Below the pieces are notes generated by a model. The model did no database searches and was not told the origin of the DNA. It was given only the letters and a program-made list of their open reading frames with translations. From an uncultured Nitrososphaerota archaeon (lineage in GTDB: Archaea > Asgardarchaeota > Njordarchaeia > Njordarchaeales > Njordarchaeaceae): a stretch of DNA of 64,000 nt. A program made the position numbers and the translations under genes. This document shows positions 8,236 through 39,330 of this stretch, one piece after another; the first letter of the stretch is position 1; each line of letters opens with the position of its first letter. Location: assembly GCA_964518475.1 (NCBI GenBank), contig CAZFGR010000001.1, positions 96,001 through 160,000 of the forward strand, read 5' to 3'.

Positions 8236-10602
<2,367 letters not shown>

Positions 10603-14062: not shown

Positions 14063-14162
14063 TGGCGGGCCCGGCGGGATTTGAACCCGCGACCTACGGC
14101 TCTCCGCGTGGGATAACTCGACTCCGCAGGCCGTCGCTCTATCCAGGCTGAGCTACGGGCCC
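14063..14162 (-). tRNA. tRNA-Arg(GCG) with ~22-nt intron at 37/38 and encoded CCA
   Basis: Reverse complement GGGCCCG-TA-GCTC...ACGGC-CTGCGG[intron]A-GCCGT...GGTTCAAATCC...CGGGCCC-G-CCA; A20 present. Confidence 0.95.
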
Positions 14163-29617: not shown

Positions 29618-32368
29618 TCATTGCATTACTCTTTCTAACTTTGTTAAAATTGTCGAAGCATCGATTTCCGATGATGCTATGAGACCAAATTTTATAATCC
29701 GGCCCTTAGCTCCTATCTTTTCGATAATTTCTTTCAATTTTTCTAGGAAGTTCTTTGACCCAGCCGCAACTATTGTTGTCTTGCCTCCTACTGTACTAGC
29801 CAGTATGATGTCTCTATGTAAATTGTTTAAACGTTTTAGCACTTCTATCATTAGGTTATGAGGGAAATCAATACGAACTAACAATACGTCTCCGGGAAGC
29901 TTCTTACCCTCCTTTTCAATAATCGTTTCTAGATGATTTAATATTAAGTTCGAGAGCTTCGTAATATGTTCTTGTTGATCTTTCCATTCTTCAAAGAAAC
30001 GTTTAACGGTCTTCGGCAAGTCTCCCGGCACTACTTTGAGAATTTCGCATGATTCCTTTAAGTATTTCTCTTGTTCCTTAATATATTCGTAAGCTCTTTC
30101 ACCAGCTACGAAGATTAATCTTACAACCCCGTCATGGATTCTTCGGGTACCTATTATTTTTATAAACCCAATTTCGCCAGTAGATCGTACATGTGTACCT
30201 CCGCAAGCCTCAACTTCCCAATCCTTTACAGACACTATTCTAAGATATTTTCCAGGAACCGCCCCTCCTTGATAAATCCTCACTCCATATTTCTTTTCAG
30301 CCGTTGTTCTATCAAGTATTTCGATTTTGACTGGTCTGTTCTCCATAACAATCTTATTAGCTAATTCCTCAATCCTGTTTATTTCTTCTTCAGTGAGATT
30401 CTTATGATGTGATATATCAAGTCGCGCGTACTTCTCCGATTTTTCAGCACCAACCTGCCAAACATGAGGCCCCAAAACGTATCGAGCTGCGGCATTAACT
30501 ATGTGTGTAGCTGTATGATGTTTCATGTGTAACCAGCGACGTCTCCAATTTATTTTACCGTGAATTGTTTTTCCTACTAATTCTCTTTCGACCGGAGAAT
30601 CAACAACATGAACGATAACGTTTCCTATTTTCCTGACGTCTACTACCTTAAGTATTTTTCCATCGATAATTATTTCTCCAGTATCCTCTAACTGGCCTCC
30701 ACCTCTTGGATAAAAAGCAGTCTGATCTAGAACTACGTAGTGATTCTTAACAAAGACTATCTTAGCATCAAACTCTTTCATATACTGATCTTCGTAGTAA
30801 AGAGGCTTTGTCGAAGGAAGTCCCTCCAATACTTTTCCTAGACTTCGTCTAATGGTTTCTTCTAGATCTTCTTTTCTTTCTTCTCCACTTTTTGCTTGTT
30901 TTTCTAATCGTATTAAGTCAAAGAAGTTAGGTGGTATCTCTACCTTTACTCCTTGCTTCTTTGCTATCTCTTCCACACTAGATGGGGGTAATCCATGGTT
31001 TATGTAAAGATCTCGTAGTATCTCATAGCGGATAACTTTTAGTTTCTTCTTTTTTATTAGTCTTAACAATTCAGCGATACCTTTCTCGAGCGATGATTTG
31101 TAACGCTGTAGTTCTACTTTCCAAACATCTACAACTACGTCCCGTCCTTCTTCTATTCTCGGAAAACTCTCCGAGAAATAATCTATCTGTTTATGGAGTA
31201 GTTCTTCCCAATCTATTTGGAAATTCATATTCTCCGCTAACGAAACCGCTCTTCTCAGTATCATTCTTAGGTTATATGCGCCTCCCACGTTTGATGGTAT
31301 ACCTCCGTCTGGAATCGCGAAAACTAGAGTTTTTGTGTGATCGAGTATAGCATATACTGCTTCGATGGGTGCTAGTTTATCCTCTAATTCCTTAAGGGAG
31401 AATCCTAGAAGACTTGCTATCTTTTCTCTTGATTTCTTGAACCTTTCTGGGGATTTCGTATCCAGTATACCCGATAGTTTCGCGTATTTCACCAATAGTT
31501 CTTTATCAATTTCTAATCCTATTTGGTTTTTCAACCATTCAAACACGGGTCCAAAAGTAGCTTCATAAATCGTGGGTGTTCTTTGCCTAAACCAAGCGAT
31601 TCTCTCTAGTCCCCACCCAACATCAAGAACTTTTAATTTGAGTGGTGCCCATCTACTATCAATGAATTCATACTGCATAAATACTCCATTAACTATTTCT
31701 AATCCATAAGCAAAAGTTTCAATAGAAGGACCAAAGTTTCCTCCTCCGCTCCATACATCTTCCTTATAGGTGAGTTCCTCTGACGGTATTTCAAGGACTT
31801 TTGTCATGAATTCAAAGTTGTATCGAAGATACTCGTCTTTCCAGTAGATCCATGATTTCTCTGAGTTGAAAGCGTGTTGACCTCCCATCGTAAAACTCGT
31901 GAGATGTCTTCCCGTTTTACCAATGTTATCTATATCGCTAAACTCACCTCCAAACCTAAGACATGGCTGAGGAATAACTAGAGGATTTGCTGGGGGATCC
32001 ACAATTCCCTTAACAACCCAGGGCTGAAAAACAGCTATAGACGCTATTGTGAATTCAATATCATCTCGCCACCTAGCTACCACGGGGTAAGGATCCAAAA
32101 CAGCGTGTCCTCTCTCAGCAAAAAAGCCCGTCCATTTCCGTATGGTGTTGTGAATATCCCACTCCCTAGACCAAGTGTTGTCTTCGATAAATCTATATTC
32201 TCCTTCACATTCAACGTCTCCACAAGTTTCTCGATCCGGATTTAATGTCCAGAAAAACCTTCCACAAACCTTACACTGTTTGCGCACGAATCCCATTTCT
32301 TTAAAGAATTCAGTCTCATATTCTTCCTTACCAAATAGTTTGAATAATTCCTCTTTACTAATGCTCAT
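29618..32368 (-). CDS. alaS: Alanine--tRNA ligase (archaeal type, with editing domain)
   Basis: YPVVARWRDD, FTIASI, QPCLR, DVGWGLER, PSN, editing motifs HTATH and CGGTH. Confidence 0.98.
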   Translation of the reverse strand: MSISKEELFKLFGKEEYETEFFKEMGFVRKQCKVCGRFFWTLNPDRETCGDVECEGEYRFIEDNTWSREWDIHNTIRKWTGFFAERGHAVLDPYPVVARWRDDIEFTIASIAVFQPWVVKGIVDPPANPLVIPQPCLRFGGEFSDIDNIGKTGRHLTSFTMGGQHAFNSEKSWIYWKDEYLRYNFEFMTKVLEIPSEELTYKEDVWSGGGNFGPSIETFAYGLEIVNGVFMQYEFIDSRWAPLKLKVLDVGWGLERIAWFRQRTPTIYEATFGPVFEWLKNQIGLEIDKELLVKYAKLSGILDTKSPERFKKSREKIASLLGFSLKELEDKLAPIEAVYAILDHTKTLVFAIPDGGIPSNVGGAYNLRMILRRAVSLAENMNFQIDWEELLHKQIDYFSESFPRIEEGRDVVVDVWKVELQRYKSSLEKGIAELLRLIKKKKLKVIRYEILRDLYINHGLPPSSVEEIAKKQGVKVEIPPNFFDLIRLEKQAKSGEERKEDLEETIRRSLGKVLEGLPSTKPLYYEDQYMKEFDAKIVFVKNHYVVLDQTAFYPRGGGQLEDTGEIIIDGKILKVVDVRKIGNVIVHVVDSPVERELVGKTIHGKINWRRRWLHMKHHTATHIVNAAARYVLGPHVWQVGAEKSEKYARLDISHHKNLTEEEINRIEELANKIVMENRPVKIEILDRTTAEKKYGVRIYQGGAVPGKYLRIVSVKDWEVEACGGTHVRSTGEIGFIKIIGTRRIHDGVVRLIFVAGERAYEYIKEQEKYLKESCEILKVVPGDLPKTVKRFFEEWKDQQEHITKLSNLILNHLETIIEKEGKKLPGDVLLVRIDFPHNLMIEVLKRLNNLHRDIILASTVGGKTTIVAAGSKNFLEKLKEIIEKIGAKGRIIKFGLIASSEIDASTILTKLERVMQ

Positions 32369-32454
32369 TGTACCGCCCCAGTCATATATAAGGCTACTCA
32401 ATTATATACGTCTCAACTAAAGCTACAGTCTAAAATAATAATAGATGGAGGAAG

Positions 32455-32472
32455 ACGAAAGCTTTTTTAATG
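32455..32472 (+). promoter_or_regulatory. Probable BRE/TATA promoter of tRNA-Ala
   Basis: GAAAG-CTTTTTTAA about 40 nt upstream of the mature tRNA 5' end. Confidence 0.4.
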
Positions 32473-32509
32473 ATGATGGAAGAGATAGATATACCTTTTA
32501 TGGTAAGAT

Positions 32510-32584
32510 GGACGGGTAGCTCAGTGGTAGAGCGCCGGCTTCGCAAGCCGGAGGCCGCGGGTTCGAATCCCGCCCCGTCCACCA
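32510..32584 (+). tRNA. tRNA-Ala(CGC) with atypical A3-U70 pair and encoded CCA
   Basis: GGACGGG-TA-GCTC-AGTGGTA-GAGC-G-CCGGC-TTCGCAA-GCCGG-AGGCC-GCGGG-TTCGAAT-CCCGC-CCCGTCC-A-CCA folds into a perfect cloverleaf. Confidence 0.96.
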
Positions 32585-38978: not shown

Positions 38979-39330
38979 GGGCACGGCCATCCCCGGCGGG
39001 AAAGCCTCCCTACTCTCTGATCTCGAATCTCAACTTTTCCCCGCTTAGTCTCGGAGCATAGGGGCGCTGGGTTAGGCGCGCTCCCTTCCGGGCCTACGCC
39101 GATTCCCCACCGCCCCACGACGGGCTCCTAGACACCCGCCTTCCAGCGGGTGTCTAGGAGCACGCCCCTATCCCCGAGAGGCGGGGAATCATCGTCTCGA
39201 TTCGAGATCAGAGAGTAGGGTTTTAACTTCCCCATCCGGGGACTTTCGGGCCCGCCATATCGGGGATTTGCGGCCGGAACCGCTGTGCGGTTCCGGGAGG
39301 GACCCCGAGCCCCTCGCCCTAGCCGTGCCT
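38979..39330 (-). ncRNA. ffs: Archaeal SRP (7S) RNA, ~350 nt
   Basis: GC-rich island; terminal helix GGCACGGC/GCCGTGCC; Alu loops UCGGGG/CCCCGA; long helix 5; helix 6 with GGAA loop; helix 8 AGGCCCGGAAGGGAGC. Confidence 0.95.

Follow-up and report, generated by a model that had tools for sequence, protein, structure and literature searches.

The G3:U70 wobble pair of the tRNA-Ala acceptor stem is the founding example of tRNA identity. Its recognition by an archaeal alanyl-tRNA synthetase (AlaRS) has been described from co-crystals of the A. fulgidus enzyme (Naganuma 2014, as summarized in PMC6055181, PMC6451123, PMC8583063 and PMC11392972). According to these summaries, Asn359 contacts the O4 of U70 (PMC6055181), and Asp450 bonds the free 2-amino group of G3 in the minor groove through both its side chain and its backbone (PMC6055181, PMC6451123). 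Specificity of the A. fulgidus enzyme against G3:C70 is loosened only by Asp450 substitutions (PMC6055181), and the peptide Y-(D/E)-(S/T)-(H/Y)-G is said to be 'always present' except in the mitochondria of mammals (PMC6451123).

In mammalian and insect mitochondrial alanine systems the G3:U70 pair is absent or moved, and the human mitochondrial AlaRS is G3:U70-independent (PMC6451123, PMC9976931). The AlaRS of N. equitans, when assembled from its alpha and beta subunits, is most active on the G3:U70 minihelix and charges each of the four Watson-Crick variants less well (PMC11392972), and selections in tRNA-Ala knockouts of E. coli (Choi, Otten & McClain 2002, as outlined in PMC9976931) gave growth with non-G:U combinations at 3:70. 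The nearest precedents for the system described here are the mitochondrial alanine systems and the in vitro activity of the N. equitans alpha subunit, neither of which is a free-living organism with G:U-less tRNA-Ala genes. No prior report of a G3:U70 exception in Asgard or other archaea was found in the searchable literature, subscription journals excepted.

The locus analysed here lies in a window of 64,000 nt (positions 96001-160000 of contig C1) of an archaeal metagenome-assembled genome (G000), which comprises 2.33 Mb in 121 contigs with 38% G+C, 91% completeness and 5.8% contamination. Its AlaRS shares 79% identity with the enzyme of 'Candidatus Njordarchaeota archaeon B77_G9' and 60% with the one of 'Ca. 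Njordarchaeum guaymaensis GB_154', which places the organism in the Asgard order Njordarchaeales. The alanine system found here shares with the canonical one (3WQY) the cloverleaf, the NGC anticodons, G1:C72, G2:C71, A73, the AlaRS architecture and the counterpart of Asn359, whereas it differs in having A:U or U:A at 3:70 with no G:U in the acceptor stem, and Ile, Leu or Val in place of the acidic Asp/Glu. The combination of a tRNA-Ala lacking G3:U70 with an AlaRS diverged in its minor-groove peptide recalls mammalian and insect mitochondria (PMC6451123, PMC9976931); however, those systems are organellar, their tRNAs are degenerate, the G:U has moved to 2:71 or 5:68 and the peptide is rewritten throughout (CGDLG), whereas the present organism is free-living, its tRNAs are otherwise textbook and the peptide is changed only at the acidic residue. 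The split AlaRS of N. equitans is also similar in that its beta subunit has the motif LYISKG with Ile in the Asp450 column, but the wild-type minihelix-Ala of that organism carries G3:U70, whereas the genes described here are themselves without G:U. Moreover, the G:U-independent activity of N. equitans is weak, in vitro and limited to one subunit, and alaS is unsplit in G000. The E. coli survivors, as outlined in PMC9976931, carried the mispairs C-C, C-U and G-A, which are helix irregularities obtained under artificial selection, in contrast to the regular A:U and U:A pairs of the Njordarchaeales.

The tRNA-Ala genes and the adjoining alaS

ARAGORN, Rfam (RF00005, 80.4 bits against a cut-off of 29, which is above the family threshold) and direct reading agree on the tRNA-Ala(CGC) that the initial annotation had described, with its cloverleaf, A73, encoded CCA and all-Watson-Crick acceptor stem containing A3:U70 (Table 1). 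The stem, GGACGGG/CCCGTCC, has seven Watson-Crick pairs out of seven and no wobble. The major alanine identity element G3:U70 is absent, and a G:U moved to 2:71 or 5:68 in the mitochondrial manner is likewise absent from the stem. The anticodon, which reads GCG, lies in a 7-nt loop TTCGCAA with U33 and A37, while G1:C72, G2:C71 and A73 are present and are retained in all recovered members of the order. The distance to the start of the divergent alaS had been given as about 140 bp and measures 141 bp; this spacer presumably holds the promoters of both genes.

Table 1 Features of the tRNA-Ala/alaS locus and other loci mentioned in the text. Coordinates are those of the window unless a genome and contig are given.
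Feature	Location	Strand	Basis and remarks
tRNA-Ala(CGC)	32510-32584	+	ARAGORN and Rfam RF00005, bases read directly
A3 of tRNA-Ala(CGC)	32512	+	A, direct reading
Anticodon CGC	32542-32544	+
U70 of tRNA-Ala(CGC)	32578	+	T, direct reading
A73 of tRNA-Ala(CGC)	32581	+
Encoded CCA	32582-32584	+
Divergent spacer alaS/tRNA-Ala(CGC)	32369-32509		141 bp, AT-rich, direct reading
alaS	29618-32368	-	916 aa, range includes stop
alaS start codon ATG	32366-32368	-
Glu53 codon	32210-32212	-	column separates A:U from G:U lineages
Asn360 codon AAC	31289-31291	-	alignment, equivalent of A. fulgidus Asn359
Ile456 codon ATA	31001-31003	-	alignment to 3WQY, column of A. fulgidus Asp450
Cys774 codon	30047-30049	-	column separates A:U from G:U lineages
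Other two tRNA-Ala genes (GGC, UGC)	G000 C1:15330-15404; C11:32757-32831
AlaX-like paralogues	G000 C4:88996-89709; C4:71896-72504
tRNA-Arg(CCG)	G000 C3:45435-45512
tRNA-Arg(GCG)	14063-14162	-	100 nt
Archaeal SRP RNA	38980-39329	-	Rfam RF01857, 137 bits
tRNA-like sequence (L127)	G253 C98:262-335
tRNA-Ala(UGC) (L153)	G111 C521:1315-1390
AlaRS in two ORFs (L081, L084)	G007 C10:52768-55463		residues 15-580 and 583-911

The genome contains 45 tRNAs by ARAGORN and 38 by Infernal, among them exactly three tRNA-Ala genes (GGC, CGC and UGC) that together cover all GCN codons and that have the top three tRNA scores in a whole-genome Infernal search; no fourth tRNA-Ala was found by either program in the whole genome. 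As had been predicted for the GGC and UGC isoacceptors, all three genes have A3:U70 in the same GGACGGG/CCCGTCC stem, and they are identical except at the anticodon-loop positions 32-34. Such near-identity suggests concerted evolution or gene conversion, and gene conversion among the isoacceptors would let a change at position 3 reach all three.

The fragmentation, completeness and contamination of the assembly leave some room for an artefact, in which a sequencing or assembly error, contamination or pseudogenes would account for A3:U70 and the real G3:U70 genes would have remained unassembled. However, the same stem is found at three loci, one of which is on a 403-kb contig beside alaS, the set of isoacceptors is complete with the highest tRNA scores of the genome, and a dozen independent MAGs agree. 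In addition, an independently assembled contig of 3,995 nt from a public sediment metagenome run (depth 38) shows zero differences over 32200-32532 and reads A at 32512, a position at which no variant was reported; the sole variant reported within the tRNA, C to G at 32542, gives the anticodon of the paralogous GGC gene. We regard the chance of an artefact as negligible. The gene is best explained as a genuine, functional tRNA-Ala, and since the other two isoacceptors and independent MAGs of the order carry the same feature, A3:U70 lies far beyond chance or error.

Reassignment of the GCN codons does not account for the unusual stem either, since these codons still stand at conserved alanine positions: in a small sample, 13 of the 17 GCN codons of alaS at outgroup-conserved columns align to Ala, and both alanines of the cdc48 AAA+ Walker A region motif are specified by GCG (codons at 9916 and 9922), as the initial annotation had pointed out.

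The synthetase shows full-length homology to solved structures (E-value 1.3e-213 to P. horikoshii 2ZZE and 3.8e-199 to A. fulgidus 3WQY, residues 15-868), with the catalytic, tRNA-recognition, editing and C-terminal regions all present, and it is the only full AlaRS in its genome, where the search gave one match at E<=1e-50. The major-groove asparagine (A. fulgidus Asn359, E. coli Asn303) is retained as Asn360 in a PSN motif. The acidic minor-groove residue (A. fulgidus Asp450, E. coli Asp400) is absent and Ile456 takes its place in the local motif LYINHGLP, compared to LYDSHGIP in 3WQY and the canonical LYD(S/T)HG. The adjoining synthetase is indeed altered, as had been proposed, and the change falls on the residue that contacts G3 in A. 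fulgidus.

Two free-standing AlaX-like editing-domain paralogues with 36-37% identity to the AlaRS editing domain are also encoded in the genome.

Distribution among Njordarchaeales and other archaea

The order was sampled by 14 species genomes, from each of which at least one tRNA-Ala was recovered. The expectation that sister genomes would also have A3:U70 was borne out for most of them: 12 of the 14, G000 included, carry it (G000-G004, G006-G008 and G010-G013), and it did not hold for the other two, G005 (which is GB_154) and G009, where all recovered tRNA-Ala genes keep G3:U70. Families f1 and f3 have the A3:U70 stem GGACGGG/CCCGTCC, and family f2 has GGAGGGG/CCCCTCC. In G001 and G006 the CGC gene is U3:A70 while the remaining isoacceptors have A3:U70, and the presence of both kinds of genes together in these genomes implies that one enzyme serves both orientations. 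The named public MAGs likewise represent all three states, with A:U in B77_G9, U:A in B6_G17 and G:U in Ca. Njordarchaeum guaymaensis GB_154. None of the tRNA-Ala genes recovered from the 14 genomes has G:C or C:G at 3:70.

The genus mates G002, G001 and G005 also have tRNA-Ala(CGC) linked to alaS, and there is no linkage in other families. The orientation varies within the genus: it is divergent in G000 and G002 (L071), whereas the tRNA gene lies upstream and co-directional at about 130 nt in G001 (L082/L006) and B6_G17 (L051) and at about 1.1 kb in G005 (L074).

Beyond the order, tRNA-Ala genes with a non-G position 3 were sought with a sequence pattern that gave no false hits in G000 and comes without a matched positive-control count; it misses intron-bearing genes and atypical T-loops, and its counts are lower bounds. 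Among 400 genomes of the phylum, the scan matched 11 of the 14 order members and outside the order gave a convincing case only in G111, an unrelated Asgard genome whose GGC and CGC tRNA-Ala genes have the stem GGACCGG/CCGGTCC and thus A3:U70; no other convincing case appeared in the 385 further Asgard genomes. Fifteen matches to tRNA-Arg(GCG) were set aside as register false positives. The same scan returned zero matches in 201 genomes from the phylum to which a Bathyarchaeia MAG belongs, and the controls from Bathyarchaeia, Methanoperedens, Methanomassiliicoccales and Desulfurococcales all have G3:U70.

Two further sequences came up in these genomes. In G253 the pattern also matched a malformed tRNA-like sequence with a UGC anticodon loop, in which U3 and U70 are mismatched, the acceptor has other mismatches as well and the D-arm is aberrant; a pseudogene or tRNA-like element is the probable explanation. 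G111 also has a tRNA-Ala(UGC) gene with a different backbone (GGGGCTG/CAGCTCC) and canonical G3:U70, located on a 4.9-kb contig whose G+C content resembles that of the MAG as a whole; the gene may be native, borne by a mobile element or a contaminant.

Covariation of AlaRS residues with the 3:70 pair

The column of Asp450 holds I, L or V in all 12 Njordarchaeales AlaRS recovered, compared to D in 8 of 8 outgroup archaeal enzymes and D or E in five other Asgard enzymes, all of which go together with G3:U70 (E in G020, G022, G024 and G040, D in G110). Val is combined with G3:U70 in four lineages (G005, G009, G014 and G017). An independent replicate is provided by G111, which has Thr and A3:U70, whereas its sister in the AlaRS tree, G110, has Asp and G3:U70. 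A quick maximum-likelihood tree of AlaRS places G009 (Val, G:U) at the base of the Njordarchaeales clade and G005 (Val, G:U) inside the A:U group. Among about 900 aligned columns, only three, 53, 456 and 774, have disjoint residue sets in the 11 A:U and 17 G:U lineages, and of these column 456 had been chosen from the crystal-structure literature before the column scan. Since the lineages are related, the independent events are few, roughly three.

Within this material, Val goes with G:U and Ile, Leu or Thr with A:U in 21 of the 21 Asgard genomes scored for both traits. As a general rule the correspondence is contradicted by N. equitans, whose enzyme has Ile and prefers G:U (PMC11392972), and within Asgard it is offered as a lead only. 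An aliphatic residue in place of Asp450, as the Ile of N. equitans shows, does not suffice for independence of the wobble pair. D or E is absent from the column in about 34 of 150 representative archaeal-type AlaRS; for two such acid-less enzymes (P0031 and P0111) metagenome contigs of 3.6-5.5 kb were recovered, and no tRNA genes lie on them. In the sample studied here, non-G:U tRNA-Ala genes occur only where the acidic residue is absent, and loss of the acid with G:U kept is also seen. The loss of the acidic residue is thus best seen as a permissive precondition, at best, for G:U independence.

Column 53 is a weak lead as an A:U correlate. The zinc knuckle at the N terminus (CGDVEC; motif CGDxEC) has Glu53 directly ahead of its fourth Cys, and the residue is Glu in the independent lineage G111 too; however, Glu is common at this column in other AlaRS, being found in 16 of about 122 representatives, many of which have D or E at 450.

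A GGxYNLR motif following Asn359 was considered as lineage-specific and dropped, as it occurs in 68 of 151 representative AlaRS, mostly with D/E at 450; the motif characterizes a large AlaRS subfamily as a whole and not the Njordarchaeales lineage.

The AlaRS of G007 reads as two adjacent same-strand ORFs 11 nt apart; the gene may be split, as it is in Nanoarchaeum, or the interruption may come from a frameshift or an error of assembly.

Possible modes of alanine recognition without a wobble pair

With a sole AlaRS, encoded next door, to charge three GCN-reading tRNAs that lack any G:U, alanine identity appears no longer to depend on G3:U70. It is likely, judging from the genes, that the Njordarchaeales AlaRS charges unedited tRNA-Ala without G:U, so that alanine identity is free of the wobble pair; the initial proposal of a G:U-independent recognition mode in a cellular lineage is thereby supported at the level of genomics.

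The word unedited matters here, as deamination of A3, or of A70 in the U:A genes, to inosine would produce I-U, a pair isosteric with G-U, and an enzyme no longer reading the 2-amino group might accept it by shape. Without an Asp that reads the G3 amino group, I-U would equal G-U for shape recognition, and the Ile-bearing enzyme of N. equitans still favours the wobble (PMC11392972). The U3:A70 genes, however, would need editing of the other strand and a reversed wobble, which is rejected by canonical AlaRS (PMC6451123), and the only CDA-fold gene in G000, found via PF00383, encodes a cytidine deaminase of the tetrameric type (TIGR01354, 128.6 bits, above the cut-off), a family that is also present in the G:U lineage G009. 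The ADAR/ADAT1 domain (PF02137) gave no match in the genome, in a search whose control was silent as well. We know of no tRNA adenosine deaminase that acts at position 3 or 70, and editing appears quite improbable.

If the genes are charged as encoded, the role of the 3:70 pair itself comes into question. In both G000 and G010, which represent two families, A:U at 3:70 is confined to tRNA-Ala: all 42 non-Ala tRNAs of G000 have G:C (30) or C:G (12) at this position, as do all 34 non-Ala tRNAs of G010 (G:C or C:G), and no G:U is found in the acceptor stems of the G000 tRNAs. Thermophile tRNAs typically have G+C-rich stems, and the uniqueness of A:U could simply follow from this. The AlaRS might ignore 3:70 altogether and rely on G1:C72, G2:C71, A73, the G5-G7 run and the elbow, contacted via C-Ala, leaving 3:70 to drift. 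That A:U, U:A and G:U are all found within one order, and in part even within one genome, would fit such drift, and there are precedents in the N. equitans AlaRS-alpha, which on its own charges minihelices with any 3:70 and needs only A73 and the helix end (PMC11392972), and in the human mitochondrial AlaRS, which uses 1:72, 2:71 and 4:69 in place of 3:70 (PMC6451123). Free drift in the G+C-rich stem of a thermophile should, however, have yielded G:C, yet neither G:C nor C:G occurs in the tRNA-Ala of the 14 genomes, despite being universal in the other tRNAs of G000 and G010. Furthermore, the Val, Pro, Ile, Met, Phe and Trp tRNAs of G000 share G1:C72, G2:C71 and A73, and these elements alone therefore cannot discriminate. 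An enzyme indifferent to 3:70 is considered unlikely.

The reading preferred here, in which 3:70 still discriminates as a weak Watson-Crick pair, is given a slightly better than even chance. From the minor groove, A:U and U:A would look alike, both being without the guanine 2-amino group, and G:C and C:G would be rejected. The aliphatic residue 456 would pack against the 3:70 pair, and the weak pair together with G1:C72, G2:C71 and A73 would set tRNA-Ala apart from the remaining tRNAs, all with G:C or C:G at 3:70. As for the origin of such recognition, the ancestor of the Njordarchaeales was most probably already without the acidic residue that hydrogen-bonds the 2-amino group of G3, and its loss would have relaxed the need for the wobble pair. 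A single G3 to A3 transition would then have been fixed and spread through the near-identical isoacceptor genes, and in some genomes one gene would have shifted further to U3:A70. On the broader proposal that the Njordarchaeales, and independently a second Asgard lineage, have swapped G3:U70 for a Watson-Crick rule at 3:70 (A:U or U:A versus G:C or C:G), read by a retooled, non-hydrogen-bonding minor-groove loop of AlaRS, our judgement is evenly poised.

The suggestion of a naturally orthogonal tRNA finds no support, as an enzyme taking any A:U or U:A would probably charge many host tRNAs. The Njordarchaeales tRNA-Ala would probably be orthogonal in bacteria, whereas an enzyme accepting A:U or U:A at 3:70 probably would not.

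If the proposed recognition is true, no earlier alanine identity system of natural cells would have lacked a G:U pair altogether, and the order would be a living example of a 'second genetic code' rewritten with the codon table unchanged. A 'universal' recognition rule seems to have been rewritten, and a free-living lineage without G3:U70 would show that the rule is not frozen. The presence of natural intermediates, namely Val enzymes with G:U, Ile/Leu enzymes with A:U and genomes with both A:U and U:A genes, means that the path of the identity switch can be reconstructed, and the enzymes offer a natural AlaRS for testing whether base pairs are read by shape or by hydrogen bonds. Annotation tools and fidelity models keyed to G3:U70 would mis-score these genomes. 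Being an Asgard lineage, the order also bears on what translation apparatus is tolerable to the archaeal relatives of eukaryotes.

Regarding other tRNAs, reassignment of CGG from Arg to Trp has been proposed in two assemblies tentatively of a Njordarchaeales family (2026 preprint 10.64898/2026.04.02.715157). The tRNA-Arg(CCG) of G000 is ordinary-looking, with the stem GGGCCCG and G73, and gives no sign of a CGG to Trp change. The tRNA-Arg(GCG) in the window contains an intron, as do many tRNAs of the genome, some of which are mislabelled by ARAGORN for that reason, and the window also encodes an archaeal SRP RNA (Table 1).
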